A stretch of 64,000 bases of DNA from Candidatus Termititenax aidoneus (GTDB taxonomy: Bacteria; Margulisbacteria; Termititenacia; Termititenacales; Termititenacaceae), in assembly GCA_003864455.1 (NCBI GenBank), contig BGZN01000003.1:25484-89483 (forward strand). Reading direction: 5' to 3'. A program made the position numbers and the translations under genes. The notes below the pieces were generated by a model. It saw only the letters and a program-made list of their open reading frames with translations. It was not told where the DNA came from and made no database searches. Positions 9,283-26,838 of the stretch are shown here, piece after piece; positions within the stretch are counted from its first letter, which is position 1, and the number at the start of each line of letters is the position of its first letter.

Positions 9283-10785
9283 ATGCTGATCAAGCCCCGT
9301 CTGGCCGATCACAAAGTCGTGGGTTTTTATATCGGCTCTATCTTGACCGGTCTCGGCGGCGCTATGATTTTGCCGCTGCTGACCGCGCTGATTTTTCGGG
9401 AATGGTCTGCGCTGCTCGATTATCTTTTGAGCGGTTTGTTGACGAGCGGCTTGGGTCTGGCGCTGCGCCTGCTTTGTTTTACCAAAAAAGAAATTGACTG
9501 GCTGCACGGCTTGACTATCGCCGCGCTGTTTTGGCTGGCCGCGGCCGCGGCTGCCGCGCTGCCGTTTTTTCTCGGCGGCAATTACGCCTCGTATCTAGAT
9601 GCTTTTTTTGAAGCGATGAACGCGCTGGCCACGGCTGGTTTTAGTTTGGCGCGTGATCTAGACCATATCTCCGCGGCGGACAATATGTGGCGGCATTTGC
9701 TGATGTTTTTCGGCGGACAGGGCATCGTGGTGATGGCTTTGAGTTTTCTGACGCTGCGCGGCGCCGCCGGTTTTAAACTTTACGCCGGAGAAGCGCGCGA
9801 GGAACGCATCGTGCCAAATATCATCAGCACCGCGCGCCTGATCCTGCAAATCAGTTTGGTTTTTCTCGTGGCAGGCACAGCCGCGCTGACTTTGATTTTG
9901 CGCTGGGACGGCCTGTCCTGGACGCAGTCTTTTTGGCACGGGCTTTGGCTGTTTATGTCCGGCTTTAGCACCGGCGGTTTCGCGCCGCACTCGCAAAATA
10001 TTTTGTATTATCACAGTTGGCGGCTGGAAATAGCCTTGCTTTTCTTAATGTTTTTAGGTGTTTTGAATTTTCGTCTGCACTATGCTGTCTACACCGGCGA
10101 CCGCCGTGAGCTGTACCGCAATATCGAGACTGTGGTTTTGTTTTGTTCGTTTTTGCTGGCATTTTTTTTGGTCTGCGCCGGGTTGCTTTATTTCCGTGTT
10201 TACCCCGGTCTCGGAGCGGCGTTGCGCCAGGGAGTTTTTTTGCTGGGCTCTAGCCATTCGACCGCAGGTTTTATGACGGTCTATGCCGGGCAGTTTTTCC
10301 GTGAATGGCCGCAGCTTTCTCTACTGGCTTTGCTGGCGGCGATGGCGGTCGGCGGCAGCGCTTGCTCGACAGCCGGCGGTATCAAGGCCTTGCGCATCGG
10401 CATTCTTTTTAAAGCTCTGCGGCAGGATATCAAGCGTCTGCTGCTGCCGCCCGGCGCCGTGTCTGCCGAGCGCTACCATCATGTCAAAGATTATTTTCTC
10501 GATGACAAAGTGGTACGCGGCGCGGCGATTGTAACTTTGCTGTATCTGACGGTTTTTGGCCTCGGCGCGCTGGCCGGAGTTTGTTACGGCTATCCGTTTT
10601 TGCCGGCTTTGTTTGAGTCTATTTCGGCCGCGACGAATGCCGGCCTGTCCTGCGGTATTATCACGCCCGGTCTGCCTGTCGGCCTGAAATTGATTTACCT
10701 GCTGGAAATTTGGGGCGGCCGTTTGGAGTTTACCGCCGTGCTGGGTTTGCTGGCCTACGGCTGGGCTTGCCTGAAAGGAAAATAA
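9283..10785 (+). CDS. trkH: Trk-type K+ uptake membrane protein TrkH, 500 aa
   Basis: Polytopic membrane protein with repeated selectivity-filter-like motifs (STGGFAP, CSTAGG, NAGLS). Operonic with trkA. Confidence 0.8.
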   Translation: MLIKPRLADHKVVGFYIGSILTGLGGAMILPLLTALIFREWSALLDYLLSGLLTSGLGLALRLLCFTKKEIDWLHGLTIAALFWLAAAAAAALPFFLGGNYASYLDAFFEAMNALATAGFSLARDLDHISAADNMWRHLLMFFGGQGIVVMALSFLTLRGAAGFKLYAGEAREERIVPNIISTARLILQISLVFLVAGTAALTLILRWDGLSWTQSFWHGLWLFMSGFSTGGFAPHSQNILYYHSWRLEIALLFLMFLGVLNFRLHYAVYTGDRRELYRNIETVVLFCSFLLAFFLVCAGLLYFRVYPGLGAALRQGVFLLGSSHSTAGFMTVYAGQFFREWPQLSLLALLAAMAVGGSACSTAGGIKALRIGILFKALRQDIKRLLLPPGAVSAERYHHVKDYFLDDKVVRGAAIVTLLYLTVFGLGALAGVCYGYPFLPALFESISAATNAGLSCGIITPGLPVGLKLIYLLEIWGGRLEFTAVLGLLAYGWACLKGK

Positions 10786-10788
10786 TTT

Positions 10789-11265
10789 GTGAGAAAGATT
10801 ATATTTATTTTGCTGCTGACCGTTTTGTCCCTGGCCGCACAGGAGCGTTCGTCCGGTGAACTGCTCGCTTTGCCGCGCGAGTATGACAATATTCCTACAC
10901 TTTACCGCGGCGAAGTAATCGGCGATATTCTGGCGCGCGGTGAAAACGTCTGGTTCAATGTCAGCGACGGCGAAAACGCAATCGGTATTTTTGCGCCGCG
11001 GAGATTAGCCGCGGAAATTCAAACTACCGGAAAATATTTACAGCGCGGCGACACTGTGGAAATTTTAGGCAAATTTAGCCGCGCCTGCGCTGAGCACGGC
11101 GGCGAGCTGGATATTCACGCCGCGCAGATCAAAGTGCTGGCTAGAGGATACGCGCTGGCGCGGCCGGTCAGCAAATTTAAAATTATTTTATCCGTACTCC
11201 TGGCCGGCGTTGTTTTATTCTTGGGCAGACTGGATTGGCAAAGACAGGGCAGGTTTATGAAATAA
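10789..11265 (+). CDS. Hypothetical exported protein (signal peptide, C-terminal hydrophobic anchor), 158 aa
   Basis: GTG start after RBS aaaggaaaa. N-terminal signal-like MRKIIFILLLTVLSLAA. No recognised domain. Confidence 0.5.
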   Translation: MRKIIFILLLTVLSLAAQERSSGELLALPREYDNIPTLYRGEVIGDILARGENVWFNVSDGENAIGIFAPRRLAAEIQTTGKYLQRGDTVEILGKFSRACAEHGGELDIHAAQIKVLARGYALARPVSKFKIILSVLLAGVVLFLGRLDWQRQGRFMK

Positions 11266-11280
11266 TTCCGGCGTAAATTT

Positions 11281-11325
11281 AATTGTTTCATAATTTTGTT
11301 ATAATTGTATCATTATGAAACAATT
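11281..11325. repeat. Perfect 14-bp inverted repeat AATTGTTTCATAAT (17-nt spacer) ATTATGAAACAATT
   Basis: Read directly. Located 16 bp after the stop of the 10789..11265 gene, in the long intergenic region upstream of the lipoprotein gene. Confidence 0.6.
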
Positions 11326-11434
11326 TATGACAAGCCTTTTTAGCCTTTTGCCGTCCGGGTTATGGCTATTTATATACCCCCAAAACATGTTATAATTACA
11401 CCTATGGTGGATAAAGACAAAATTGTAACTATTA

Positions 11435-11444
11435 CCCCCCCCCC
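11435..11444. repeat. Homopolymeric C(10) tract about 165 bp upstream of the lipoprotein gene
   Basis: attaCCCCCCCCCCagttt read directly. The antisense G-run produces the spurious poly-Pro ORF 11432..11887. Confidence 0.7.
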
Positions 11445-11609
11445 AGTTTTTGGCGTACCTGCGCTAAAAATCCAGCATTTTCTGTATTTAAACATCTAAC
11501 AAATTTCTCCTGCGTAACGTAATTTTTGCGATGTCTCGTCGGTCTCGACGGTTCGACAGGCTCACCGTCCGAGGCTCGGTCAATACAAAACACACAAAGG
11601 AGAAAAGAT

Positions 11610-12908
11610 ATGAAAAAAATAATTTTAGCGATTTTCACAGTAATGCTGGCGCTGTCCATATTCGGCTGCGGCAAAACGCAGCAGGCGAGCGGTGGCGGTT
11701 CATCGAGCGGAGGAGGAGGTGGCGGTGGAAACACACCGCAGACTTTTTCGATCAGCGGTGAATCAGATTTGTTAAATGGATATGTTTCTGGATTTTCTGT
11801 TATGGCCGCTGATGATTTTTCGGTAACGCTCCATGACCTCTTGACCGGCGCGACGGTGAATGCCAACGTGAAAATAGAGGATGGCAAATATTCTGTTACC
11901 GGTCTGGATGCCGCTAAAGTTTACGAGGTGCGCCTAAGAAAAAATAGCGACGTGCAGAGTAATGTGGCCGCCAAGCCGCGCTTTTCCGATACGGCGACAG
12001 TTAATGTTAGTGAAAATACTACAACTTTTGCGAATAAGATTATAGAAAAGAAAGATGAGATAAAAGACGCGCTGACTGGCGCTAACGCGGCGGCGGGTAA
12101 GGTAAACGAATTGTTCGCTCTGGCCAAAGATAATGAAAGCAAACTCGTTGAATACGCAAGGCAGATAAAAAATTCTAAACAAGACAAGCTCACCGTGCTG
12201 GCCTGGGACACTAAAAACATTGACGGCAGCACAAGCGATTGGAACAAGAATTATACTGTCTTGTTTGACGCTGACCATCCCCTGTCTGACACCGACAACC
12301 GTCTCACATGGAGAGGTATAGGCAAGGCATATAAAGATTGTTTGGTAGTAAAGAACGTCAAAGTGGCTAGGGACAATGACAATCTTTATTTCTTGTGGGA
12401 GCAACAAGGAAATGGATTTTATACTGACGAGGAAAAAAAGGATAATAACAATATTTGGGATAATCGTGGAAAAAATACAGTAGAGTACATGATGGGAATT
12501 TACATTGCCGGCACGGGTTGGGATGCTGAGGACGAGACGCGTCCGCCATCGTATATGGAAACTCCTGTGCTCGCGGAAATGGGGATGAGTAATACAAAAA
12601 TACAAGACGAAGTCCGGTTTAGCGCTCAGATCTGGAGGAAAGAAGATCCGCACCACAACATCGTGATAAACGATAAAATGCAAGGCAAATTGAGCGGCGA
12701 TAAGAAATTTCTGGAAATAGCCGTGTCAATAAATGAAATCCAGGAACATTTGAGAGGCTATTTACTATCAGACTATGATGATGCTTATGTTATTGGCATC
12801 AAGGTTAAAGGTAATTATGAATGGGTTCCGGGGCCCAACGACGGCGAAGGTAGTATGATCGGGGGTAATTATAATTTTATAACCAATATGTTGTTAGTAA
12901 AGTTTTGA
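11610..12908 (+). CDS. Lipoprotein with a Gly/Ser-rich linker, 432 aa, function unknown
   Basis: RBS aaggagaaaag. Signal + lipobox MKKIILAIFTVMLALSIFGC followed by GGGSSSGGGGGGGN. The ORF-track N-terminal extension (11526) lacks an RBS. Confidence 0.65.
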   Translation: MKKIILAIFTVMLALSIFGCGKTQQASGGGSSSGGGGGGGNTPQTFSISGESDLLNGYVSGFSVMAADDFSVTLHDLLTGATVNANVKIEDGKYSVTGLDAAKVYEVRLRKNSDVQSNVAAKPRFSDTATVNVSENTTTFANKIIEKKDEIKDALTGANAAAGKVNELFALAKDNESKLVEYARQIKNSKQDKLTVLAWDTKNIDGSTSDWNKNYTVLFDADHPLSDTDNRLTWRGIGKAYKDCLVVKNVKVARDNDNLYFLWEQQGNGFYTDEEKKDNNNIWDNRGKNTVEYMMGIYIAGTGWDAEDETRPPSYMETPVLAEMGMSNTKIQDEVRFSAQIWRKEDPHHNIVINDKMQGKLSGDKKFLEIAVSINEIQEHLRGYLLSDYDDAYVIGIKVKGNYEWVPGPNDGEGSMIGGNYNFITNMLLVKF

Positions 12909-12945: not shown

Positions 12946-13254
12946 TTGATTGAAAACAATCTGGTCGGTACTAATGAACTGATCTTGACCGAATTATTGC
13001 CGGCTGTTTGGCATCAGAAAGAGCACAAATTGGCGGAATTGCTGAACGCTTTGCCAAAGTACCCTCTGCGCATTGATTGGGACGAGCTACGCTCCTGGCA
13101 AGCCCTCAATCTCAAAAAGGGTTTTAACAACATTGGCATTCCAGATTTATTGATCGCTCAAAATTGCTTGCAAAACCATTTGCAGATTTTCAGCCGCGAC
13201 AAACATTTTCGCTGGCTGGCCAAACATTTGCCGTTGGAGTTATACGCCGGTTGA
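12946..13254 (+). CDS. Possible PIN-domain (VapC-like) fragment, 102 aa, TTG start, no clear RBS; may be a gene remnant
   Basis: C-terminal GIPDLLIAQNCLQNHLQIFSRDKHF resembles the C-terminal acidic motif region of PIN domains. The N-terminal catalytic Asp region was not identified. Confidence 0.25.
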   Translation: MIENNLVGTNELILTELLPAVWHQKEHKLAELLNALPKYPLRIDWDELRSWQALNLKKGFNNIGIPDLLIAQNCLQNHLQIFSRDKHFRWLAKHLPLELYAG

Positions 13255-13296
13255 GGTTGTTCGCTCCCTTCGCCAGCGTATCCGCAGGATACAGGC

Positions 13297-14022
13297 TCAG
13301 GGAGCGCAGAGAGCAATGGGGAGCGGAGAGCGTGGCAGGGCTGAATAATTTTTCAACGCCACATTTAAAAACAAACCCTCTAAATAAATTTGCGCCTGCG
13401 AGATAAGCGTGCCGCTGGGTTTGTGGCGCAACTGCAGTCCGTTTTCCGGTGTCCGCTCCAGCACAAAGCCGCGGCTGCCGCCGTGAAAAATATTGTGTTG
13501 ATTTTTCTCAAAAAAGAGCGTTTGTCCCAGCAGTCCCCAATGAAAATTAACTTTGTAAATATTACTCATGGTCAGAGGGTCGCGCTCCGCCGGACTAAAA
13601 ACATGTGGCGGTAATTCCAGGTCGCGCGGCCGTTGCAGCCTGCCGTCCAGTTTGGTTGGAAAAGTTTCTATTACTTTGTACCGGACATTGGGGTCGATTT
13701 TTTGCGCCAGACGCAGCAGGCCAAAATTGGCGGTGTATTCTATGATTATCCCGTCCGCCGTACCCAGCAAATAGCGCAGTATAGCCTGCCCGAAACCGCG
13801 CCGCAGATATTTGTCCTCCAGCCGCCAGAGCGGAATAATGAGCAGGTGATTATCGCTTTTGCGCAGGAAGATTTCTCCGGCTTTGCCGCCCTGGTAAATT
13901 ATCCGGTATTCATTGCCGTTGAGATAAGCGCTGTATTTTTGAAATTCCAGCCGCAGGTCGGCGTTAATAACAACGCGGCCGGCGGGCTGGCGTTTAAAAA
14001 CGGACACAAGTTTGGTCTGCAT
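13297..14022 (-). CDS. GNAT-family acetyltransferase-like protein, 241 aa
   Basis: GNAT motif A-like RRGFGQAILRYLL. The rest is unrecognised. Confidence 0.45.
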   Translation of the reverse strand: MQTKLVSVFKRQPAGRVVINADLRLEFQKYSAYLNGNEYRIIYQGGKAGEIFLRKSDNHLLIIPLWRLEDKYLRRGFGQAILRYLLGTADGIIIEYTANFGLLRLAQKIDPNVRYKVIETFPTKLDGRLQRPRDLELPPHVFSPAERDPLTMSNIYKVNFHWGLLGQTLFFEKNQHNIFHGGSRGFVLERTPENGLQLRHKPSGTLISQAQIYLEGLFLNVALKNYSALPRSPLPIALCAP

Positions 14023-15929: not shown

Positions 15930-16004
15930 TCCCCGATCGTCTAATTGGTAGGACGACAGATTCTGGCTCTGTTAATCGAGGTTCGACTCCTTGTCGGGGA
16001 ACCA
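15930..16004 (+). tRNA. tRNA-Gln (anticodon CUG), 75 nt including the encoded CCA
   Basis: Hand-folded cloverleaf: acceptor TCCCCGA/TCGGGGA, D-stem GTCT/GGAC, anticodon stem ACAGA/TCTGT with loop TTCTGGC (anticodon CTG), T-stem CGAGG/CCTTG with loop TTCGACT, discriminator A, then CCA. Confidence 0.8.
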
Positions 16005-17555
16005 ATCCACCCTAGTATCCAACCCCGTTGAATTTAGTCTTTGACGATTCACGGAGTCAATCGGCCTTATCTTAATCCGTACTAAAGAGTCTTTGCTGTT
16101 TTCTTGAGGATAGAGCCGTATTTCGTCAATTATATAGCCTAGCAGTTTTTCTTTATCGATAAAACTTAATTCGTCATACATCTCGTAAAATATCCTAAGG
16201 GTGTCTCTTAGGTCATTATCGGTGGCTTTTTCCTGTTCTTTTAAGGCAATCAATTCATCGAAGTTCGAGCTTTCTAGGCCATATTTGGCAATTTCTTGCT
16301 CATACTTGCGGATAAGGTCGGCTAAATCGGGGTCATTTTTCGATAACTTTTGTAACTTATTTTCTACCCCTATTTTTTTGTTTAATATCCCTTGTTTCTG
16401 GTTGCGTAATTCTTGTATTTCTTTGTTCTGCTGCTTTCGTGCGTCAACTAAAACTTTTTCGAAGGCTAGATTATCCTTAAATAAATTCTTTAACTCCTCG
16501 GCTAGATGTTTTTCAATCAATTCGCTGTTAATTCTTATTCTTTTCTTTTTATTATCTTTAATATATGTATGCACATAATAATTGGTGTTGTTTTCCTTGT
16601 TATAGCCCATCTGCTTTTCAGAATCATTGTAAAACAACAAATCACTCAATATTCCCCTAGAAGCAGCAGACCTTCTTAATTCCGGTTTAGTATTGTCATT
16701 AAATATCTCTTGGCACAGGTTAAATACAGACTCGTTGATAATCTGACAAGACGGATTCCAATTAACAATTTTTCCGTCATGTCTGGCTTTACCAATGTAA
16801 TAGGGATTGTTTAGGACATTTTCCACATTATCCCTTTTGAAAGTTCTGTCTTTATTTTTTAAGTTTTGCTTATTCAAAAAATCAGCCACTTTTTTAGCAC
16901 TTTTTAACTCGATATATTTATCAAAAAGTAATTCAACAATAGGCCGTTCATCTTCATTGATTACAAGTTTTTTTCCGTTTTGGTCATATCCAAGGGGGAC
17001 TCGTCCGCCTCTAAATTGTCCTTCCTCAATCATGCGGTTCATACCGGTTTTAGTTCTTTCCGTGATAAGTTCACGCTCATATTCCGCAAAAGTTAAGATG
17101 ATATTCATCATCATTCGTCCTGCTGCTGTAGCAGTAGAAAAATCTTGTGTTATAGAAACAAGCGATATATCTTTGTACTTCAAATAATCGTTTATAAACT
17201 TGTAAAAATCACTAATGCTTCTGGTCAATCTATCAAGTTTATATATGACAATACAATTTATTTTACCTGCTTCAATATCTCTAACCAGTCGCTCATATTC
17301 GGGTCTATCTAAATTGCTCCCTGGCTTCCCTTTTTCGGCATATATTTCAGTCAGCACCCATCGTTGTTTATCGTCTGTGTCGTTGCGTAATGATATATGC
17401 TTTTTACACAGCTCGATCTGATTGTCCACAGAATCATGCTCTTTTAGTTGGCCGTATTTATCTTTGCCTTGTTTTTGGTCGCTAAATCTAGCATAAATTC
17501 CACAGCGTAATATTTTCTGTTCCTCGGTTTGAATAACAGCATTATTATTTTTCAT
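15972..17555 (-). CDS. Large serine recombinase (integrase) of the element; its last 11 codons are encoded by tRNA-Gln sequence
   Basis: N-terminal resolvase catalytic domain (YARFSDQKQ...; IYKLDRLTRS), recombinase domain and a coiled-coil-rich C-terminus; 527 aa. The stop lies at 15972-15974, inside the tRNA. Confidence 0.85.
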   Translation of the reverse strand: MKNNNAVIQTEEQKILRCGIYARFSDQKQGKDKYGQLKEHDSVDNQIELCKKHISLRNDTDDKQRWVLTEIYAEKGKPGSNLDRPEYERLVRDIEAGKINCIVIYKLDRLTRSISDFYKFINDYLKYKDISLVSITQDFSTATAAGRMMMNIILTFAEYERELITERTKTGMNRMIEEGQFRGGRVPLGYDQNGKKLVINEDERPIVELLFDKYIELKSAKKVADFLNKQNLKNKDRTFKRDNVENVLNNPYYIGKARHDGKIVNWNPSCQIINESVFNLCQEIFNDNTKPELRRSAASRGILSDLLFYNDSEKQMGYNKENNTNYYVHTYIKDNKKKRIRINSELIEKHLAEELKNLFKDNLAFEKVLVDARKQQNKEIQELRNQKQGILNKKIGVENKLQKLSKNDPDLADLIRKYEQEIAKYGLESSNFDELIALKEQEKATDNDLRDTLRIFYEMYDELSFIDKEKLLGYIIDEIRLYPQENSKDSLVRIKIRPIDSVNRQRLNSTGLDTRVDWFPDKESNLD

Positions 17556-17648
17556 AATTATAGATACGCTCCTTTATATAAAGATTATTATTTAATCAAA
17601 CTTGGGGCAGAGATGGGTAAAACCCTCTCTGCCAGTTTCACTAAATCT

Positions 17649-18347
17649 TTAGGCTTTCGCTACTAAAGATTCCTGCGGTTCTGCAACCGTTGAAGTTTGT
17701 TCAGCAGTTGCGGTCAAGGTGTTTTGTAAGTCTCTTAATTCTTTAAGAGCTTCCTCGACTTTGGCAATAGCTTCGCTTAATTGGTTTGGGTTTTTGATAT
17801 TCTTTACAACAATATCTTTTTCCCATCTGTTAAGCGAACGGCTGTTCCTGTTTTTGCAATATTTTTTATATATTGCTTCCAGACCTAGGCTGTCCACTTC
17901 AGCCTTTTTGTCGGGATTCTTAGATAGAAAATCACCCACCTTAGCATATTTCGAGACCAGTGCCTCGGACTTGCTTATTGCGGTGGAGACTTGGGCTTGA
18001 GTAATATCTTTATTATCAAGCACGGTCAAAACCGCTTTAGCAAATTCCGAGGGCATCAGATTCTTTCTCTGACAGTTCTCGGTAAGTTGGGTTAAGATGG
18101 TCTCCACACCATCTTTAGTTTCTGTAACAATCACAGGTACAGTTTCTAAATTGGCTAACTTAGCCGCCTCAAACCGCCTATGACCACAGATAACTTTATA
18201 GCCATCCCCCTCTTTTCTGGCACAGATGGGCTGCATAACCCCATAGGATTGGATGCTTGCTTTCAAGCTGTCCAATTTCCCCATGTCGGCACTCCGGATG
18301 TTCGTGCCGTTTGTTAATTGCTCCATAACCATATTGATCACTGCCAT
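17649..18347 (-). CDS. ParB-like nuclease domain protein
   Basis: ParB/Srx motif region MQPICARKEGDGYKVICGHRRFEAAKLANL. Confidence 0.65.
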   Translation of the reverse strand: MAVINMVMEQLTNGTNIRSADMGKLDSLKASIQSYGVMQPICARKEGDGYKVICGHRRFEAAKLANLETVPVIVTETKDGVETILTQLTENCQRKNLMPSEFAKAVLTVLDNKDITQAQVSTAISKSEALVSKYAKVGDFLSKNPDKKAEVDSLGLEAIYKKYCKNRNSRSLNRWEKDIVVKNIKNPNQLSEAIAKVEEALKELRDLQNTLTATAEQTSTVAEPQESLVAKA

Positions 18348-18671
18348 AATTCTTTACCTTTCTGTACAATCATGTACAATTTTATTTGCCAATTATCTGA
18401 CTTTATATCCAGAGTATATTTTTAAGAGATTGGGCTTATTACTCCACCTGCCTTTCAAGCATTTGTGCAGAAAAGTAATTTGCCGTACTAGACCTTGGCG
18501 AGCCTAGCTTAGTTAAATGTTTTCTTGCACAACAAATTTTGAAAGGGGCGTTTTACTTCCGGCTCAAGCTGTGGTTGGTTGTATGGCCGTTATCATTTAT
18601 TTCGCCCTGTTGTTAAACCACAGGTTTGGCAATACTATCAAACTCGCTATTTCTTGTCAACAGATATTTTT

Positions 18672-19358
18672 TCAATTCAACAAACCCTTAATTTTTTTCT
18701 GTGCCGTACCTGCACTTCTAATAAAATAATTTGTATCGCTTTTCATTTTGTTTTTTAGTTCTGCTAAATTTTCTTTCTCTGCTCCTCGGCTTAATCCGCA
18801 TTGTGCCAGTAAGTAACTTGCCGTAAGTGTGTTTGTCAGATTGTCATTTGTTTGTGGTTCTAAATTTTTTGCCAGAAAAACAATCGCTTTTCTAAAATAC
18901 TCCTCGGTATCAAGTCTGTTATCACGGGGCAGTTCTTTATCGGTTTTTTCAGAGCCTTTTTGTAACAGGTTATCAGTTTCATAGAGTTTATCGGGATAGA
19001 TATAATCGTCTTGCAAACCGGCAAAGTCAGCGTAGATCGATGTGTTGCACAAAGGGAATGAATGATAATAAGCCAGCCTGCCACCGGAGTTACAATTACG
19101 GAAGTAGGTCAGCAAAGCCCCTGTACTGCCTGTCATTATTTTACCGCCCATCTCTTTGATTTGCATGTAAGAGCCAAAGAATACATTGTTTTTTATGTTG
19201 TGCTGTCGGCAGTAGATACTCAATAAGGCTTGGTTTAATACGCTGTAATTCTGTTCACTGGCCATATTGCGGTATAGAAATCCTTGATTGAGAAAATCCA
19301 AACCGTTATTTTCTACATATCCTAAAACATAGTCATTTATAATATTTTCAACACGCAT
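18672..19358 (-). CDS. ArdC-N-like (ssDNA-binding, DUF1738-like) protein
   Basis: Architecture and motifs resemble the N-terminal domain of the neighbouring ArdC-like protein (…YRNMASEQNYSVLNQALL…FFGSYMQIKEMGGKI). A weak call. Confidence 0.4.
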   Translation of the reverse strand: MRVENIINDYVLGYVENNGLDFLNQGFLYRNMASEQNYSVLNQALLSIYCRQHNIKNNVFFGSYMQIKEMGGKIMTGSTGALLTYFRNCNSGGRLAYYHSFPLCNTSIYADFAGLQDDYIYPDKLYETDNLLQKGSEKTDKELPRDNRLDTEEYFRKAIVFLAKNLEPQTNDNLTNTLTASYLLAQCGLSRGAEKENLAELKNKMKSDTNYFIRSAGTAQKKIKGLLN

Positions 19359-19596
19359 AAGATTACCCCTTTTTATTTGATGTAAAAGTTTCGTAACAAA
19401 ACTATTGAAAAATTAGCCCTCGCTTAAAGACACCACCCACCTTATTTTTGAATACGGTTTTTTCTAAAATGTGGAGCGTTATTTTTAAGAAAGGACTAAT
19501 TATTTATTCACTAAGATTTAGCGTTTGATTTTTTCTTGTAAGATTTTCCGCAGAAAATCCATCTCTTTTTGGCTTAGATTAGACTTGAGCAATAAT

Positions 19597-20484
19597 CTAT
19601 CTTTGTTCATGGCACACTTCCTTTCCTGCACCCTCATTTAGCTTTCGTCCAAAAATATAATCTGCCGCCTTGCTTGCCTTACTGCTAGCAGACACAAGGG
19701 CTTCTTTTTGATTTTTTAGAAAGTTAGCCCAGTTATTGATATAGGCTTGTGTATTGGTTTTGTTTATAGGCAAGCCTAACTCTTGCATAATAAAACTGCT
19801 AGCCATTTCCGCTATCAATTCCTCTTGGCTGTATGAATTTCTATCTTTATTAAGGCTTTCCAGAGGTCTATTTAATCTTTTTGCATTTCCCGTCCAGTGA
19901 GACAATTCGTGAAAAGTAACACCGTAGTATTCGTTAGTGTTTATAAATGTTTCGGGTTTTTGTATATAAATAGTGTCCTCACTTGGTATATAGTAATTGC
20001 CGGAAACAGATACAATAAGATTAGGGTTGTTTGCTTTTATAACTCCCTCGGCTTTTTCGATAGGGTTAAAATTATTGTGCTGTTTTTCGGGTAACTTCAT
20101 ATTGGTTTGCTCTATGTTAAAAACATTGTAATAGCGTAATATGGGTATCTCTTTTACTTCTTTTAGACCGTTTTTATTTGTTACTTCTTTTTCCGTGATT
20201 GTCCAGTAGATAACCGGCACGGATTTTTCACCGCAATTTACGCTACCGCCTGCGTTTTTAATCTGTAAGAAAGTACCCCAGATATTATGTTTATAGCTTT
20301 TTTTGTTAGCGATATAAGTTAAATATAAATAATTTATACCTCTATAAGTTTTATTAGATTGTAGATTTTTAGGCAGCTCCGCAGCACAGGGGTTTTGCCA
20401 CGGTATAACACCTAACTCCAATCCTTTAATCAGTTCCTCTACTATTGCCTGTTGCTTCTCTTGTGCGATTGTCATGGTCAGCAC
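19597..20484 (-). CDS. ArdC-like antirestriction protein (ssDNA-binding N-domain + zincin-like metalloprotease C-domain)
   Basis: N-terminal …IPWQNP…YRGINYLYL…TFLQIKNAGGSV. C-terminal HExxH zincin motif FHELSHWTGN. Confidence 0.7.
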   Translation of the reverse strand: MLTMTIAQEKQQAIVEELIKGLELGVIPWQNPCAAELPKNLQSNKTYRGINYLYLTYIANKKSYKHNIWGTFLQIKNAGGSVNCGEKSVPVIYWTITEKEVTNKNGLKEVKEIPILRYYNVFNIEQTNMKLPEKQHNNFNPIEKAEGVIKANNPNLIVSVSGNYYIPSEDTIYIQKPETFINTNEYYGVTFHELSHWTGNAKRLNRPLESLNKDRNSYSQEELIAEMASSFIMQELGLPINKTNTQAYINNWANFLKNQKEALVSASSKASKAADYIFGRKLNEGAGKEVCHEQR

Positions 20485-20586
20485 CGCCTTTCATTGGTTA
20501 GTTATCTGCCAACGACAGAGGACAACTCCGAAGTGCGGTGCAAATATTGAAAGGCGGTTATTGAAGACTATGCGGAAGTTTAGTAA

Positions 20587-20826
20587 CTAAAGATTAGCGG
20601 TGTGGTTACTTTCATCTTTAATATTTATATTATAAGTATGATGGTCTTTAGTTTTTACGGTTACTCGCCATAATGTTGCGTCTTTTAATTTCTTTCGCCA
20701 CCAGATTTTTTCAACAATTTCTTTGTTTCCGACAGTTTCAACTATCAGATTTTCTATGTTGTTTCGTAACTTTATGTTTGTTAATTCATTGTCTATATCT
20801 ATTATTTTTCCCATTTCACCAGCCAT
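20587..20826 (-). CDS. Hypothetical protein, 79 aa
   Basis: ORF with an upstream RBS inside the AT-rich element. No recognised domain. Confidence 0.4.
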   Translation of the reverse strand: MAGEMGKIIDIDNELTNIKLRNNIENLIVETVGNKEIVEKIWWRKKLKDATLWRVTVKTKDHHTYNINIKDESNHTANL

Positions 20827-20870
20827 ATATACGCTCCTAAAATATTTTTACCTTCTTTAGAGACTAAAGA

Positions 20871-21293
20871 TTAGTTATTTATTTTTTTTGTTTCTCTGAC
20901 TTTTTCTAATTTTCTTTTAGCGGCATACGCTTGCTTCAAAAATGAGACCGCTTCTTTGTTGGTCGGCTCTAGTTTGACTACTTCCGTAAAATCTTTTATT
21001 GCCTTATCAAAGTTTTTTGTTTGAGCATACGCACACCCTCGAAAGAGATAAGCCGGTGCAACGCTTTTGCCGAATTTAATCGCCTTAGTAAAATCCGCTA
21101 TGGCCTTGCTCCAATTCTTTAGCTCAAAATAAGCAAGCCCACGGCCAAAATATGCCGTTGAGTGATCCGGCTTTAATTTAATGTATTCAGAAAAACTTTC
21201 GATTGCCTTATCCCAGTTTTCTTTTTCAAGGTACATCTTCCCGGTACTTAGGTACGCTTTTTTAGCTTGCCCTTTTGTCGATTTTTTAATCAT
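20871..21293 (-). CDS. TPR-repeat protein, 140 aa
   Basis: Three TPR-like units (W-LG-Y-A-F-P pattern: AYFGRGLAYFELKNWSKAIADFTKAIKF…). Confidence 0.6.
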   Translation of the reverse strand: MIKKSTKGQAKKAYLSTGKMYLEKENWDKAIESFSEYIKLKPDHSTAYFGRGLAYFELKNWSKAIADFTKAIKFGKSVAPAYLFRGCAYAQTKNFDKAIKDFTEVVKLEPTNKEAVSFLKQAYAAKRKLEKVRETKKINN

Positions 21294-21697
21294 CGATATG
21301 CTTCAGGGTCATATCGTATTGGCTCAGTTTCAAAACCTTTAATGATTTCCATTTGCATATTCTCATTTATTTTTACAAGTCCCCATTTACCATTTTTCAT
21401 TAAGGAAAATTTTCCGGTTGTTTGGTATTCACTAAACCAAATGTTATCATACTCAAAATTAACAATAATTTTTCCTTGTTTACTGATAACTCCCCACTTA
21501 CCGTTATATATTGCAGGAAATAAACCATTGTGATACTCATAAATTCTGACTTTGTCAAAAATACGTTCGCTAATTTGCTTTCCATATTCATCAAAAACTT
21601 TCCATTTAGTACTACTTATTCCCACGGCAGTTAGCCCTTTGTATTCTTGAATTTGAGTTCCCTTATCGTACCTTATATTGAATTTTTCACTACTCAT
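21290..21697 (-). CDS. WG-repeat protein, 135 aa
   Basis: Repeated (N/K)GKWG(V/L)(I/V) motifs (YNGKWGVISKQGKIIV; KNGKWGLVKINEN). Confidence 0.6.
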   Translation of the reverse strand: MSSEKFNIRYDKGTQIQEYKGLTAVGISSTKWKVFDEYGKQISERIFDKVRIYEYHNGLFPAIYNGKWGVISKQGKIIVNFEYDNIWFSEYQTTGKFSLMKNGKWGLVKINENMQMEIIKGFETEPIRYDPEAYR

Positions 21698-21720
21698 ACT
21701 TCACTTCTCCCATAATTTCT

Positions 21721-21948
21721 TTAAAGATTGTCCAAATTCTCAATTTCAATTTTGCCTTTGTGTATAGCTTTATGGCATGGCTGACATACGGAAACAATAT
21801 TGTTTGGATGGGATAGGCCGCCTAAGCCACGAGGAATATAATGATGCCCTGCACAGTTACCTTGTCCGCAAATTTCACATTTGTTTCCGGCTAATATTCT
21901 GCCTTCTCTTTGTGCTTTTATATCAATATAAGTTCTTTTTTTTGACAT
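21721..21948 (-). CDS. HNH endonuclease, 75 aa
   Basis: CEICGQGNCAGHHYIPRGLGGLSHPNNIVSVCQPCHKAIH is a classic HNH (CxxC…HH…N…CxxCH). Confidence 0.7.
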   Translation of the reverse strand: MSKKRTYIDIKAQREGRILAGNKCEICGQGNCAGHHYIPRGLGGLSHPNNIVSVCQPCHKAIHKGKIEIENLDNL

Positions 21949-21966
21949 AAATACTCTTGCACCTAA

Positions 21967-22188
21967 TCAAAATGAAGATAACGTCACATCGTCATTAGTA
22001 ATTTCTACCTCTCTATCGCCATAAGTAATAATACATTCAGTATCGTCAATGCTTACCATTCCATCCTTTTCAAAAATTATTTTAAAAATTTCCACCTTGC
22101 CGTTGGAATGTTTAACGACAATTTTATCATCATAGACATTGAGAACCTCATCACCTTTCTTTAATATTTCCAAGGATATTTTTTTCAT
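21967..22188 (-). CDS. Hypothetical protein, 73 aa
   Basis: ORF in the element's minus-strand gene string. No recognised domain. Confidence 0.35.
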   Translation of the reverse strand: MKKISLEILKKGDEVLNVYDDKIVVKHSNGKVEIFKIIFEKDGMVSIDDTECIITYGDREVEITNDDVTLSSF

Positions 22189-22206
22189 GTTGTCTCCTTT
22201 AAGTTA

Positions 22207-22419
22207 TTATTTCCCTTGCCCTGGCAAGAGATTGCGAAAAATCTGTTCGATTACTTTGCCGCCATACACACCTGTTCTGACTCTCATATCGGATTTGTGT
22301 GTTTTTTTATAGTCTTTTAGTACTTTTTTGACTTTTGGCATCACACGCTTAACATCTTTTGTTTTACCCATTATATTAACTGTGGCCGCACTTACCTCAT
22401 CATTGCTCATACAACTCAT
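22207..22419 (-). CDS. Hypothetical basic protein, 70 aa
   Basis: ORF in the element. Lys-rich. No recognised domain. Confidence 0.35.
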   Translation of the reverse strand: MSCMSNDEVSAATVNIMGKTKDVKRVMPKVKKVLKDYKKTHKSDMRVRTGVYGGKVIEQIFRNLLPGQGK

Positions 22420-22581
22420 CCTCTCTTTATGTTGTTTTAGTCAACAGCTCTGCCAGTTAAACTACAAACTCAAAACCATTATCGTTTTATACAGTTTAGT
22501 TAGAATTATACATTTGTATAGCAATAAAAACAATATCCATTCAAAGATAAAATTAAATGTCTCTTATTTAAGGAGGCATTT

Positions 22582-22971
22582 ATGGAAAATAAAACCACAG
22601 TAGAAAAAAGGTTAAAAACGCTGATCTCAACCAAGCTTCAAGAAATCAGAGAAGCGGCAGGCGGTCAATCGCTTGAGAAAATGGCCGAACAATTAAATCT
22701 AAATTATACTGTCCTGTTTCATATTTATTCGGGCAAATATTTGCCCAGATTGACAACCCTTACCCAAATTTTAGATTTTTACAATCTGCCGATAGAGATA
22801 TTTTTCAAAGATTTAACAAACAAAGATAAGGCCACACTTGCCAAAAATGCAAGTCATGCCACGCTAATTAGCGATTTTGATAAACTCGACAAACCAATGC
22901 AGGCCTCTATCCTAAAAATAGTCCGCAAATTAAATCTAAAAGAGAAAAAGCACAGGTATAGCGGTAAATAA
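22582..22971 (+). CDS. XRE-family HTH regulator of the element
   Basis: HTH-like LQEIREAAGGQSLEKMAEQLNLNYTVLFHIYSGKYLP. RBS aaggagg. It is the only plus-strand gene in the element's interior. Confidence 0.6.
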   Translation: MENKTTVEKRLKTLISTKLQEIREAAGGQSLEKMAEQLNLNYTVLFHIYSGKYLPRLTTLTQILDFYNLPIEIFFKDLTNKDKATLAKNASHATLISDFDKLDKPMQASILKIVRKLNLKEKKHRYSGK

Positions 22972-23047
22972 TTCTAAAAAATCTGTAACGGTTAAGTATT
23001 AAAGTCGAAACAGCATAAGTTTAGTGACTAAAGATTAGCCGTTTTTT

Positions 23048-24004
23048 CTATTTCTTTGACTTTCTTTTTTCGGCTTTTGCCTGTTCTAAATATTCATGTG
23101 CCTGTTTGTTATTGGGATTTAGCTCCACTGTTTTAGCAAAATCTTCAATGGCTTTGTCAAAATCGCCTTTACTGGCATACGCACAACCCCGATAAAAATG
23201 TGCCTCATCATAATCCGGTTCTAAGTTTATTGCCTTTGTATAACTTCTTATTGCCTTAATCCAATCACCTTTTTGAAAATAAGCATATCCTCGATATGAA
23301 TATGCTTGGATAGCAAGTCCTTGTCTCTCACGACTAGGATCAGATTTAATTGCCTCGGTATAATCCTCTATGGCCTTATCCCAATTTTCCTGAGCAGCAT
23401 AGGCACGTCCTCTATGCAGATATGTCAATTCATCTCCCGAATATAATTCAAGTGCCTTGTCGTAGTCTTTAATAGCCTTGTCAATATTTCCCTTTTCAAA
23501 ATACGCAATACCTCGATTGCAATAAACCATGTAATCATCATGCGTATAATTTTTATTCATTTTAATTCTTTTAGTGTAATCCTTTATGGCGTTATCATAA
23601 TCTTCCATATCACTATACGCATTTCCTCGCATGAGATATGCAATTTCGTCATTGCTGTCTAGTTTTGTTGCTTTGGTATAGTCCTCTATGGCTTGATTAA
23701 GGTTGCCTTTTTTGGCATATGCTACGCCTCTATTACAATATGCTATTCCATAATTTTTATCCAGCTTAATTGCTTCTGTATAACTTTTAATCGCATTGTC
23801 CCAATCATTTTCTTCACTATAAGCACACCCTTTATTATAAAACTCTACCGCTTGTTCGTCAGTCGATATACTCCTATCCTTAATGCCTAGTCTTTTTTTG
23901 AGATTCTTATAATACCTTTCTGGATTTTCGCAATAATCCCTATAATTAGGATCATCAAATTCTTTGTATTTATCTATAATTTCTTTTAATTCCGATTCGC
24001 TCAT
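23048..24004 (-). CDS. TPR-repeat protein (about 8 TPR units), ~318 aa
   Basis: Repeated AYxxRGxAYxxxGxxDKAIxDYTxAIKL units. Start chosen at MSESELKE (24004) rather than the ORF-track 24064. Confidence 0.65.
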   Translation of the reverse strand: MSESELKEIIDKYKEFDDPNYRDYCENPERYYKNLKKRLGIKDRSISTDEQAVEFYNKGCAYSEENDWDNAIKSYTEAIKLDKNYGIAYCNRGVAYAKKGNLNQAIEDYTKATKLDSNDEIAYLMRGNAYSDMEDYDNAIKDYTKRIKMNKNYTHDDYMVYCNRGIAYFEKGNIDKAIKDYDKALELYSGDELTYLHRGRAYAAQENWDKAIEDYTEAIKSDPSRERQGLAIQAYSYRGYAYFQKGDWIKAIRSYTKAINLEPDYDEAHFYRGCAYASKGDFDKAIEDFAKTVELNPNNKQAHEYLEQAKAEKRKSKK

Positions 24005-24005
24005 A

Positions 24006-24431
24006 TTAGTTATTCCCCTTAGGTTTACGCTGCCAAAAAGCAAGCCGAGGCAAAAACAGTACAAATCTAAGCAACCAAGATTCTGGCCAAGGATAATTAG
24101 AAAATGGCTTTTTGTTTTTTATTCTTTTTTCTTCATCGTCTTGGCTATATATTTTGGTAATGGACAGAAAAAACATATTAGGAGTAAGTTTTCTTATTAA
24201 CCCATTAGAGGCAGAAACTGCACCGCAACAGAAATCAAGGAACGGTTTTTTATCTGCTGCGTCTAATTCTTTAGTGGATAATATCAGCCAACCTTGAATC
24301 TTTAATATTGTGCCTGCTTGATGCATAGAATCTGCATCTGTTTTTTGCGGTGTATATGTAATGTCAGACAAGCTGTCCCTTATTTGTCCCTCATCTAATA
24401 ACTCCGACCCAGTTTTTTTATTTTTCGCCAT
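24006..24431 (-). CDS. Hypothetical protein, 141 aa
   Basis: ORF in the element. No recognised domain. Confidence 0.35.
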   Translation of the reverse strand: MAKNKKTGSELLDEGQIRDSLSDITYTPQKTDADSMHQAGTILKIQGWLILSTKELDAADKKPFLDFCCGAVSASNGLIRKLTPNMFFLSITKIYSQDDEEKRIKNKKPFSNYPWPESWLLRFVLFLPRLAFWQRKPKGNN

Positions 24432-24661
24432 ATATGCTCCTAAAAATTAAGTATATCATATCCTATTGCTTAACAATAATATATATTATTTGTTCTGCAA
24501 TAAACTAAAATGCCAGTATCAAAATCAGGCAAAATTTTGTGTTTGGACTGCTAAAATATTTATGACAAATTACCATACGGAATTTCGTCACGAAACTTTA
24601 TTATTCAAGGCAGACTCATTGTATATTCTTTGATAATAGTTACCCCCATTTACAGATTATT

Positions 24662-25294
24662 TTAGTTAAACCAGTCTAATTCTGTTTTGCCTTTGTAACC
24701 CTTTTCCCAGATAAACCATGCGTAACAAATGGTGCTATTGGTAGGGAAAGTAACAAAATCACCATTTCTGGCACAATTCAGACGTGAGCTTGAGACCCAG
24801 ATTTTCTTGGGCGGATTTTCAGTAAAAATCTTTTTGCGTGTTTTGCTTTCCAGATACCTAATGGGCAAAAACAACGCTAGCTTGCGGTTACAATCAAGAA
24901 TTTCTAAGGCTTTCTTCATAAATTCATTAGCATATTTATACGGTGGATTGGTAATAATATCGCCATGCCATTTCGATATGTAATCCTGTTTGTCTGTAGG
25001 ACTTGCTAAAAAATCATAATGCTTGCCGTACCCGTAATTATATTTATCAGTAGCCAACTTTAGTATGCCCTGCTTTTTTAACACTTTCGCCATGTGTCCT
25101 TGACCACAGGCACATTCCCATACGTCAGAGAAGTTATCTAGTTCTAAAAGTAATTCGGTTGCCTTTGGCTCTGTGGCGTAAAAGTCATGCATCTCACGGT
25201 CATGCAAGGCAAGATTCCGTGAGCCAATGCTCATATGTACGCTGTGTTTATTGCCTGTCCAATCTTTTGGCTTTTGATTTTTCTTGCCAGTCAT
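24662..25294 (-). CDS. Orphan N6-adenine DNA methyltransferase, 210 aa
   Basis: SAM-binding motif I (DVWECACGQGHM) followed by the catalytic motif IV DIITNPPY. No adjacent restriction endonuclease gene. Confidence 0.75.
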   Translation of the reverse strand: MTGKKNQKPKDWTGNKHSVHMSIGSRNLALHDREMHDFYATEPKATELLLELDNFSDVWECACGQGHMAKVLKKQGILKLATDKYNYGYGKHYDFLASPTDKQDYISKWHGDIITNPPYKYANEFMKKALEILDCNRKLALFLPIRYLESKTRKKIFTENPPKKIWVSSSRLNCARNGDFVTFPTNSTICYAWFIWEKGYKGKTELDWFN

Positions 25295-25335
25295 CTATAC
25301 TTAATAAAAGTTTCGCAACTAAACTTCTTTATTAT

Positions 25336-26574
25336 TCAAGGCGGCCTAATGGCATACTCTTTGAGGTCAACCCCTATCATAGAGCTTGTATAATCTATCC
25401 AGTCTATCAATCCGGCAAAAGCAGACATAACAATTTCATATTTATTTATCAACTCATGCCTGAGTTTTGTATAAAGATTATCAGGCAAAAAATCGGCTAC
25501 TTTATTAAACAGGGCATATATGCGTTTTCTTTCCCTGCACTTAGCCGAAGTGTCATTTTTATCGGAAAACCTATCATTAAGATACTGACTTATATTTAGT
25601 GTGTTAATATCTAAAAGCAAGTTTATTTCTTTCCATGATAAATGTTTACTTAACCAATCCCAAGTAAAAGTATTATTCCACAGACTAGGGTAGGGTTTGG
25701 CCTTGACTGGCAAAAAGTCTTTTAATTCTTTAGTGTAAACTTTCGTAAATAAACTTTGTAAGTTCCGTTTGGAGAATAAACTTTCTGCTGTAAACTTTGA
25801 GCCGTGAATTTTGCCAAAACTCTTTATCCGTTTACTGCCTTTGATTCTCAACTCTGCCCTTAATAGATTTATATCGCCAATATCAAAGTCCTGTTTTTCT
25901 CTTAATTCTTTGGCTTTATCATAAACACATAACAAATAACCCCCTTTTTTACTTCTAATATATAAAGAGCCTTTGAAATACCGGATTTGATTAGCATGAT
26001 GTTTTAAGTTTTCCTCAAAGAATACATAATAATCAGGCGGTCGGTTAGGAAGCTCTACATTAAGGGCTATATCTATTCTTGATATTTTTATATCGCTTAA
26101 ATCGACAACAACCCCGTTCTCTGCTAGAAAATCCTTAAACATTTCCCAAAATTTCCGGTATTGCTCATTAGTAGGCAGGGCTATATTATTACTGTTAAAA
26201 CATTTAGGGATATTTACAGTAATAAAAAGATTGCCGCTCCCTTGGCTTAAATTAAAGTGTCCGTCATTAAGCCAAAAATCCTTACACCGCAAAAAACCAG
26301 TACGCCCATCGTCATATAAAAGAGGGATAACATTATTTTTATCTGCCGTATTGCATTTATACTTTGTTAAGCAGGACTGTTTGATCCTGTACTTCTCGTG
26401 CGGCAGATAAAAAACTACGCTATCTGTGCCTACTACATAATCAAGGTTGGCTAAATTTATAAAGTTAGACTGTTGCCAGGCAAGGTTATCAAGATCAGTA
26501 AACATAATAAAATCATCATCAAATAAATCTGCAATCAAAGTCGCCTTATTATTAGCCAACACTGCTATCCTCAA
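25336..26574 (-). CDS. Rep_trans-like rolling-circle replication initiator / relaxase-like nickase, 412 aa
   Basis: Size and motifs (…LLCVYDKAKELREK… candidate catalytic Tyr in a YDK context) resemble the Rep_trans family found on ICE/IME and RCR plasmids. A moderate call. Confidence 0.45.
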   Translation of the reverse strand: MRIAVLANNKATLIADLFDDDFIMFTDLDNLAWQQSNFINLANLDYVVGTDSVVFYLPHEKYRIKQSCLTKYKCNTADKNNVIPLLYDDGRTGFLRCKDFWLNDGHFNLSQGSGNLFITVNIPKCFNSNNIALPTNEQYRKFWEMFKDFLAENGVVVDLSDIKISRIDIALNVELPNRPPDYYVFFEENLKHHANQIRYFKGSLYIRSKKGGYLLCVYDKAKELREKQDFDIGDINLLRAELRIKGSKRIKSFGKIHGSKFTAESLFSKRNLQSLFTKVYTKELKDFLPVKAKPYPSLWNNTFTWDWLSKHLSWKEINLLLDINTLNISQYLNDRFSDKNDTSAKCRERKRIYALFNKVADFLPDNLYTKLRHELINKYEIVMSAFAGLIDWIDYTSSMIGVDLKEYAIRPP

Positions 26575-26611
26575 TTTTCTTTTATAAATTGTCTGTTATG
26601 CGTTCTTGCCG

Positions 26612-26761: not shown

Positions 26762-26782
26762 TACAGAATCACCTCCCGTATT

Positions 26783-26812
26783 AAGCGTATGCTAGAATTA
26801 TAGCATACGCTT
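26783..26812. promoter_or_regulatory. Perfect 12-bp inverted repeat AAGCGTATGCTA-gaatta-TAGCATACGCTT in the divergent promoter region
   Basis: Read directly. Lies between the small RHH-like gene (minus) and the XRE-family gene (plus). Confidence 0.6.
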
Positions 26813-26838
26813 GAAAAAGGTCAACGGCTAGTATATAA

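Follow-up and report, generated by a model that had tools for sequence, protein, structure and literature searches.

At positions 11435–11444 of a 64 000-nucleotide stretch of DNA from Candidatus Termititenax aidoneus (contig BGZN01000003.1; called the window throughout, with coordinates counted from its first letter), a run of ten cytosines (C10) precedes NO1_0328, a gene encoding a predicted lipoprotein. We find that this tract is the length-variable core of a leader cassette conserved in a family of predicted surface lipoproteins, and that it lies downstream of the predicted promoter, within a short upstream open reading frame (ORF) that carries a coding signature. The reading that we place first is a slipped-strand switch in which the length of the C run would set the frame of the leader ORF and would thereby be coupled to expression of the lipoprotein; on the sequence evidence, we give this an even chance of being correct. 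The original prediction had taken the tract for a phase-variation switch near the promoter. The part that stands is a tract of variable length (9–18 nt) maintained with surface-lipoprotein genes in nine of nine leaders, whereas the promoter-type mechanism does not fit the position of the tract.

The C10 homopolymer was read directly on the plus strand, where it had been reported. A distance of 165 nt separates it from the lipoprotein ATG (11610), in agreement with the earlier estimate, and the intergenic gap, from the upstream ORF's stop (11265) to that ATG, measures 344 bp. It is the sole G or C run of at least 7 nt in the window, for which the base composition predicts 0.01 C runs of 10 nt or longer. 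Across approximately 115 kb of related DNA, the only G or C homopolymers that reach 7 nt are these leader tracts, always with C on the sense strand of the gene. With a threshold of about 8 nt or longer for G/C homopolymers at simple sequence repeat contingency loci, C10 in the window and C9–C18 in the other copies count as hypermutable repeats; C runs of 9–18 nt are intrinsically prone to replication slippage. The tract is pure C in eight of nine copies and encodes proline in any frame. CCC accounts for 17% of the proline codons in the 33 long ORFs of the window, none of which contains a run of three or more prolines, and the neighbouring codons of the small ORF show many synonymous changes, in contrast to the pure-C tract. 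Since the tract is maintained as pure CCC despite this low usage, its purity points to DNA-level selection or slippage-driven homogenization rather than to selection for a polyproline peptide.

The lipoprotein gene (11610–12908, plus strand) encodes 432 residues and its product is 100% identical to NO1_0328 of Candidatus T. aidoneus in the homologue search. Direct reading identifies a signal peptide and lipobox (MKKIILAIFTVMLALSIFG followed by C; SIFG followed by Cys20, encoded at 11667–11669), and by the lipobox pattern used ([LVI][ASTVI][GAS]C) the product is a predicted bacterial lipoprotein. The glycine run that had been noted in this protein is present as GGGSSSGGGGGGGN, encoded by mixed GGN codons at 11691–11732, 3′ of the lipobox, as part of a Gly/Ser tether that is common to all family members. 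The accompanying suggestion that the GGN stretch might itself be a slippage switch is not borne out: its unit is a triplet and its codons are mixed, so that slippage stays in frame and on/off switching by this stretch is impossible. It was ruled out as a candidate on these grounds. The tether is followed by a predicted Ig-like domain, a helical region and, at the C terminus, a domain that may be CBM9/DOMON-like, as would be judged by fold similarity to solved CBM9 or DOMON domains. The AlphaFold model has a mean predicted local distance difference test score (pLDDT) of 66.6: its Ig-like N-terminal domain is modelled confidently, a helical segment comes next and confidence is lower for the C-terminal β-sandwich. 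Pfam returned sub-threshold matches only for the lipoprotein. The modelled architecture indicates an adhesin-like surface protein.

A family search returned 16 clusters, and a second search with the 49-residue N-terminus added two partial members to give 18. At least nine clusters are from T. aidoneus, whose other family genes are NO1_0950, NO1_1234, NO1_1677, NO1_1701, NO1_1931, NO1_2082, NO1_2225 and NO1_2231, and the others are from T. persephonae, Margulisbacteria metagenome-assembled genomes (MAGs) and Joint Genome Institute (JGI) metagenomes. All members with an N-terminus start MKKIILAIFT..LAIFGCGK.QQASGGG(S/G)n and then diverge, some to unrelated architectures: the first 20–22 residues are near-identical across the family and lead into a Gly/Ser stretch of variable length, and the mature parts are 28–64% identical or unrelated. 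This combination of a shared 5′ region, signal peptide and lipobox with divergent mature parts is that of a variable surface-lipoprotein multigene family, as judged from the sequences, and we describe its members as Termititenax-specific surface lipoproteins. T. aidoneus is a Margulisbacteria ectosymbiont that is attached to termite-gut spirochetes.

We compared nine leaders, that of the window and those of eight other members whose upstream DNA was retrieved. L001, which lies on the same contig as L004, is the syntenic orthologous locus (in the order Rho, TrkA, TrkA, TrkH, a small OB-fold protein, the lipoprotein, rpsB and tsf), and the L001/L004 lipoprotein shares 64% amino-acid identity with the window protein. 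L003 is a family member in a different genomic context, L005 is T. persephonae NO2_0380, and L009, L011, L012, L013 and L015 are family members on JGI metagenome contigs. A C run occurs at the homologous position in nine of nine leaders. Its length is C10 in the window and C14 in the syntenic L001/L004; L003 has C10-A-C3, L005 at least C5 (its contig starts inside the run), L009 C9, L011 C14, L012 and L015 C15 each, and L013 C18, so that few copies share a length. Because the run is found in every leader and no other G/C run of at least 7 nt occurs in the approximately 115 kb, the tract is a maintained feature of the family, and we regard it as almost certain that tract and cassette are real and conserved.

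The cassette has the same order in the alignment of all nine leaders. A −35 element (TTTACA-like) and a TATAAT −10 box are followed 7 nt on by an ATG and by GATAAATACAATTTTGTAA; after an optional insertion of 12–16 nt comes the C run, with block 1 (TTTTTGGCGTACCTGCGCTAAAAATC) beginning 1–4 nt after it; then, in some copies, there is a 60-nt insertion, and the cassette is completed by block 2 (..CATTTTCTGTATTTAAACATTTAACAAATTTCTCCTGCGTAACGTAA), by hairpins rich in GC that are unrelated between copies and by AAAATCACACAAGGAGAAAAAATATG. A scan of the genome collection with the signal-peptide DNA found three loci only. The viral scan gave no match and the phage collection gave no DNA match. Three metagenome-scan matches to the block-2 motif (L006–L008) were set aside as unrelated contigs that lack the rest of the leader, and an Rfam scan of 10500–12500 in E-value mode returned chance matches only (E of 4 or more), with no family for the leader. 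Several family contigs start inside or just before the leader or 5′ end (L005:1–5, L010:1–17, L014:1–7, L015:1–54 and L002:1–84). The cassette thus behaves as an assembly-breaking repeat, and public data probably under-record both the size of the family and the lengths of its tracts.

The position of the tract does not fit a homopolymer that acts as a promoter switch from within the promoter or close to it. A predicted σ70-type promoter at 11369–11396 (plus strand) consists of the −35 element TTTATA (11369–11374), a 16-nt spacer and the extended −10 element TGtTATAAT (11388–11396). It matches the consensus at 10 of 12 positions, together with the TG, and is the sole good promoter-like site predicted on the plus strand of the intergenic region. 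Its position and −10 box are kept in all leaders that extend that far, and L009 has a canonical TTGACA −35 and TATAAT −10. C10 begins 38 nt 3′ of the −10 box, and the distance from ATG to tract is 30–46 nt among the copies. The tract is fixed relative to block 1 (1–4 nt) and not relative to the promoter. Between copies, the separation of promoter and tract differs by 15 nt, which rules out promoter spacing as the quantity that varies. Two other promoter candidates were rejected by eye: no conserved −10 box was seen downstream of the tract in the leader alignment, and a σ54-like TGGCGT-N4-TGCGC in block 1 has a GG-to-GC spacing one base short and lies in a coding block.

Exactly 7 nt separate the −10 box from the ATG of the small ORF (11404–11406), as they would for a leaderless mRNA start. 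All six leaders that have the box show TATAAT-N7-ATG, and the ATG of L015 lies in the same context. In seven of seven copies, no frame other than that of the ATG is open as far as the tract. Approximately 10–15 sense codons separate the ATG from the tract, which forms (Pro)3–6 within a small ORF of 39–66 codons that is unannotated in the loci examined. Because poly-C is proline in any frame, the run length modulo 3 picks one of the three downstream frames, here called A, B and C. As assembled in the window, C10 leads into frame B and gives a small ORF of 31 codons (MVDKDKIVTITPPPVFGVPALKIQHFLYLNI) at 11404–11499 (plus strand), with the stop TAA at 11497–11499. The frame-C part (SFWRTCAKNPAFSVFKHLTNFSCVT, 11446–11522, plus strand; stop TAA at 11520–11522) is out of frame with C10 and is reached with C11 or C8, which would yield a 38- or 39-residue peptide, MVDKDKIVTITPP(P)SFWRTCAKNPAFSVFKHLTNFSCVT.

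It is frame C that carries the coding signature. Across blocks 1 and 2, the variable columns fall 8/8/20 on its three codon positions (binomial p of 0.005, which is only indicative as the sequences are related), and the ratio of nonsynonymous to synonymous changes (pN/pS) is 0.26 in frame C, compared with 1.22 and 0.83 in frames B and A, respectively. All nine copies lack internal stops in frame C and all nine end in TAA or TAG at the same codon, with the consensus (F/I)WRT(C/Y)A(K/E)N-x-(A/P)F(S/P/F)VFKHLTNFSCVT, or alternatively ...FWRTCAKN..FSVFKHLTNFSCVT, before the stop. The synonymous variants include GTA/GTG/GTT, TGC/TGT, TTC/TTT, TCC/TCT, ACG/ACA, AAA/AAG and CTA/TTA. Furthermore, two unrelated insertions between blocks 1 and 2 (approximately L001:4731–4790 and L009:796–855) are each exactly 60 nt long, form GC-rich hairpins and are open in frame C. 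From this signature we consider it somewhat more likely than not that the small ORF is translated.

In the copies as assembled, the conserved frame is mostly not the one that is entered. L015 (C15) reads into frame C and would give a peptide of 45 residues. The window (C10) and L011 (C14) enter frame B, with its stop (ATY TAA) inside block 2, and L001, L003, L009 and L012 enter frame A, whose product ends ..LAYLR or ..LAHLR and whose stop codon (TAA or TGA) falls within the 3′ arm of hairpin 1. This puts six of seven copies out of frame C (frames A/B/C, 4/2/1). In assemblies, contingency loci have this appearance, with a pure homopolymer at which copies of a conserved frame are shifted. L013 (positions 1–110) combines the longest tract (C18) with a decayed pre-tract region; blocks 1 and 2 and the frame-C reading after the tract have been kept. 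This copy may be in decay, or it may indicate that the tract has a role apart from the small ORF.

Frame C also overlaps RNA elements that could connect it to the lipoprotein gene. Hairpin 1 (UUUUUGGCGU / GCGCUAAAAA, 11446–11471, plus strand) starts 2 nt after the tract, is conserved and has a folding energy of −11.3 kcal/mol (z of −3.8), with the frame-A stop TAA (11465–11467) in its 3′ arm; the three changes that its stem shows in other copies all retain G–U pairing. Block 2 (11478–11511, plus strand) contains an anti-start arm, UUUUCUGUAUUU (11478–11489), and an anti-Shine–Dalgarno (anti-SD) arm, UUUCUCCU (11504–11511), and is predicted to pair with the ribosome-binding site of the lipoprotein gene, which comprises the Shine–Dalgarno (SD) sequence AGGAGAAA (11598–11605) and the start codon (11610–11612) on the plus strand. 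The anti-SD arm, encoded by the frame-C codons N-F-S-C (AAU UUC UCC UGC), is complementary to the SD sequence, and the anti-start arm pairs with the AUG region. In the minimum-free-energy (MFE) folds of two leaders, the ribosome-binding site is paired to block 2. For eight of nine leaders, the best duplex that the translation-initiation region can form is with block 2, which beats most shuffles in six of those, and the pairing probability of the SD sequence is at least 0.90 in seven of nine. The intervening GC-rich hairpin region (11523–11590, plus strand), which forms the apical part of the predicted anti-SD/SD helix, is unrelated between copies and always structured. The GC-rich structured leader noted previously (~11523–11590) is thus present, but alone it folds no better than shuffles (z of −0.8). 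Candidate intrinsic terminators in the leader were rejected, as the hairpins have no U tails. C exceeds G in the leader segment of all nine copies.

Taken together, these features suggest how the C10 tract could act as the variable core of a cassette that precedes each examined member of the family. Slipped-strand mispairing would change the run by ±1 and move translation among three outcomes: frame C would give the full-length peptide, frame A would stop in hairpin 1 and frame B would stop approximately 5 nt before the anti-SD arm. A frame-A ribosome would halt 36 nt short of that arm, a distance that becomes 96 nt in the two copies with a 60-nt insertion. By contrast, translation of frame C to its end would carry the ribosome across the anti-SD codons and melt the helix that sequesters the SD sequence, turning the lipoprotein on, and the ribosome may also shield the leader, with its excess of C over G, from Rho, which would have the same effect. 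Premature stops would expose this segment to Rho and leave the lipoprotein off. Tract lengths would vary within a population and, with one switch per paralogue, its cells would display changing combinations of adhesin-like lipoproteins. For the core step, that the frame of the small ORF controls the lipoprotein, we judge the chance to be close to even, if not slightly below it. The complete scheme, in which each adhesin-like lipoprotein gene is gated by its own leaderless poly-C small ORF and ±1 slippage decides whether the anti-SD codons are melted, is more specific and we propose it tentatively, as a version that is unlikely to be right in every part.

Slipped-strand homopolymer contingency loci inside ORFs include pilC and siaD of Neisseria. 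The poly-G genes of Campylobacter likewise undergo slipped-strand phase variation at homopolymeric tracts inside ORFs (bioRxiv 10.1101/2022.11.09.515450). The leader resembles such loci in having a G/C homopolymer of at least 9 nt in the 5′ part of a frame, the length of which modulo 3 separates a full-length product from a premature stop, in its association with a surface structure and in the presence of copies in different frames. It differs in that the frame concerned is a leader ORF of 39–66 codons and not the surface-protein gene, so that any effect on the lipoprotein must be indirect, in its occurrence in an uncultured Margulisbacteria ectosymbiont and in that switching is here a prediction from sequence.

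Other systems resemble the family organization. The Vlp proteins of Mycoplasma hyorhinis, like similar families elsewhere, are variable lipoproteins, in the case of vlp with a poly-A tract between the −35 and −10 elements, and the tpr genes of Treponema pallidum have poly-G tracts upstream. As in these cases, a conserved 5′ noncoding region and signal peptide are combined here with divergent mature parts and one homopolymer per gene, which would make combinatorial expression possible. Unlike in vlp, the tract is 3′ of the −10 box and inside an ORF. There is also no sequence homology (sub-threshold Pfam matches only), and no tandem-repeat mature region was seen.

Regulatory leader peptides provide models for the downstream step. 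The proline-rich leader peptides of mgtL and mgtP act with elongation factor P (EF-P). At tnaC, speFL and cruR, translation of an upstream ORF gates the access of Rho, and phase variation in fim and flgB is Rho-mediated (PMC12360218); the ermCL leader peptide unmasks a Shine–Dalgarno sequence (PMC5499644), and polyproline leader peptides affect attenuation (PMC5021804). The cassette shares with these a short leader ORF, polyproline and a conserved C-terminal peptide, and ribosome position would likewise decide how the leader RNA or the ribosome-binding site further downstream folds or whether it is accessible. Those systems have as their input a metabolite, a drug or tRNA charging, whereas here a heritable change in DNA length is proposed, acting through a putative ORF. 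Variable repeats in untranslated leaders form a further group. In hmw1A of Haemophilus influenzae, heptamer repeats in the 5′ leader, a hairpin with a G-rich arm and RNase III cleavage underlie a phase switch (PMC12721329), and in tlpB of Helicobacter pylori a leader G-repeat targeted by the small RNA RepG does so (PMC8295292). The tract resembles both in being a variable simple repeat 3′ of the predicted transcription start that would act after initiation, with the Gly-codon run as its predicted partner; it differs in lying in a frame with a coding signature, where the repeats of hmw1A and tlpB are untranslated.

Several observations weigh against a slipped-strand switch of the leader ORF. 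The length differences are those between paralogues and species, with C10 against C14 at the syntenic locus, and homopolymers of 14–18 nt in Illumina or amplified-DNA assemblies may be miscalled by ±1. The transcription start site is itself predicted from the promoter. The frame-C peptide has no match in the protein database, Pfam or NCBIfam, and the N-terminal part of the small ORF shows no codon periodicity (4/5/6). L013 has ATT in place of ATG, so that no ORF enters its C18 run, and yet it keeps the tract and both blocks. A minus-strand frame shares the 3-periodicity, with a pN/pS of 0.21 on block 2. As for the RNA, the covariation test of the anti-SD helix found no two-sided changes (83% of cells paired, compared with 54–68% when the partner was slid), which lends the helix no support beyond conservation, although none would be expected if coding constrains one strand of it and the SD sequence the other, and synonymous changes in L009 weaken the anti-SD pairing.

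The best-surviving alternative, which we consider unlikely but by no means negligible, is that the cassette is a fixed leader-peptide element. Polyproline stalling (with EF-P or tRNA-Pro), +1 frameshifting on CCC-C or RNA-polymerase slippage would then allow all frames to be sampled from a single DNA length, expression would be tuned physiologically rather than by a genetic switch, and the length differences would be neutral or technical. The leader ORF does encode 3–6 consecutive prolines, polyproline leader peptides are reported to alter attenuation and transcription–translation coupling (PMC5021804), and the assembled lengths of long homopolymers are uncertain. That six of seven copies are out of frame is odd for a peptide that is needed, unless it is recoded. 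Yet selection for polyproline would tolerate CCN codons, and the run is pure C beside many synonymous changes. C9 and C10, which are short enough for reliable assembly, are both out of frame, and the intrinsic slippage of a run of 9–18 C during replication likewise speaks against a fixed element.

Somewhat less probable, and in our view rather unlikely, is an untranslated RNA element in which the C run pairs with the Gly codons or binds a G-rich small RNA, a poly(C)-binding protein or Rho, with its length tuning mRNA stability, processing or termination. In folds extended by the first 150 nt of coding sequence, the (GGN)n Gly codons, approximately 100 nt into the gene, are predicted to pair with the C run in the MFE structure of six of nine leaders, with a pairing probability of ~0.8 in five of nine (the window, where 11435–11444 pairs with 11709–11719, L001, L011, L012 and L015). 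Both the C run and the Gly run are conserved across the family, L013 retains its tract despite the lost ATG, and the hmw 5′ untranslated region (PMC12721329) and the tlpB G-repeat (PMC8295292) provide precedents. However, pairing between a C run and G-rich sequence is thermodynamically trivial and would be melted by ribosomes on the coding sequence, and the Gly/Ser stretch is already accounted for as the lipoprotein tether. The codon-periodic conservation, the conserved ATG and stop and the 60-nt in-frame insertions would be left unexplained. Neither the polyproline or recoding model nor the RNA-pairing model excludes a frame switch; both rank below it, since they leave the conservation at codon level and the purity of the run without an explanation.

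We consider it improbable that the coding signal belongs to a minus-strand small ORF (..YVTQEKFVKCLNTEN..), with the run, read there as G, lying incidentally at or beyond its 3′ end. The wobble positions of that frame are opposite those of frame C, it scores equally well on block 2, where it is open in nine of nine copies, and a weak promoter-like site is found on the minus strand at 11658–11631. On block 1 its pN/pS rises to 0.55, however, and it has five stops there, spread over four of nine copies. There is no conserved start codon (none whatsoever in L005), conservation starts abruptly at a tyrosine codon that is exactly the plus-strand stop codon, and maintenance of the C run would have no explanation. 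The block-1 stops and ratio, the lack of a conserved start and the conservation edge at the plus-strand stop together favour the plus-strand ORF, and the tract probably lies in that conserved ORF rather than at the end of a minus-strand one.

A classical promoter switch, in which the C run alters the −35/−10 spacing or an upstream element and hence transcription initiation, is very improbable. Homopolymers act in this manner in Bordetella fim, Neisseria opc and porA and M. hyorhinis vlp. The resemblance extends to a homopolymer in the intergenic region before a surface-lipoprotein gene and to 5′ regions that are conserved in the family, as they are in vlp. Switches of this type have their tract between the −35 and −10 elements or immediately upstream of them; here, the only good conserved promoter is upstream of the tract, which follows the −10 box by 38 nt at a distance that differs by 15 nt among copies and is locked to the downstream block (1–4 nt), and by eye the alignment has no conserved −10-like box 3′ of the tract at promoter distance. 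A sequencing or assembly artefact can be dismissed: although homopolymers are error-prone and the L005 contig begins inside the run, the tract occurs at the homologous site in independent assemblies (T. aidoneus, the T. persephonae records, two MAGs and several JGI samples), which refutes this explanation for the existence of the tract and leaves the exact lengths alone uncertain.

If the frame-switch model is correct, the leader ORF would be a third location for homopolymer phase switches besides promoters and structural genes, one that converts a DNA length change into the unmasking of a downstream ribosome-binding site or protection from Rho. Contingency loci are known mostly from host-associated pathogens, and we know of no phase variation in the candidate phylum Margulisbacteria. 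The model would extend contingency-locus biology to an uncultured ectosymbiont of this phylum, in which variable adhesin-like lipoproteins could govern attachment to spirochetes. It is testable from public reads, through tract-length spectra, and with simple reporter constructs.

Upstream of the promoter and outside the conserved cassette, a perfect 14-bp inverted repeat (arms 11281–11294 and 11312–11325, 17-nt spacer) had also been pointed out as part of the intergenic region. It is present and perfect, and as RNA it would fold with −17.1 kcal/mol (z of −3.6), but it is absent from the orthologous locus L001; it could be a terminator of the upstream operon or an operator. Overlapping it, at 11280–11316, are three 15-nt direct repeats (TAATTGTTTCATAAT-like) with an exact spacing of 11 nt, which are not conserved in L001. 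The loop of the inverted repeat contains a second TGTTATAATT (11297), identical to the extended −10 element of the promoter (11388). These repeats with their second −10-like box may be an operator or a second promoter.

Elsewhere in the window, comparison with L001, where rpsB directly follows the lipoprotein gene, reveals approximately 1.2 kb of extra DNA at 12946–14022. It contains an N-terminally truncated PIN-domain ORF (12946–13254; Pfam PIN, E of 1.8e-5, profile positions 30–117) and a minus-strand ORF of 241 residues (13297–14022) that has no family match. Further downstream (region 15930–28000), a tRNA-Gln gene (15930–16004) is directly abutted, and overlapped, by a minus-strand ORF of 527 residues (15972–17555) that resembles serine recombinases. 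The tRNA-Gln and recombinase genes are followed by a block of approximately 12 kb with a GC content of 35–37%, compared with ~49% in its flanks, which looks like a mobile element integrated at the tRNA gene.

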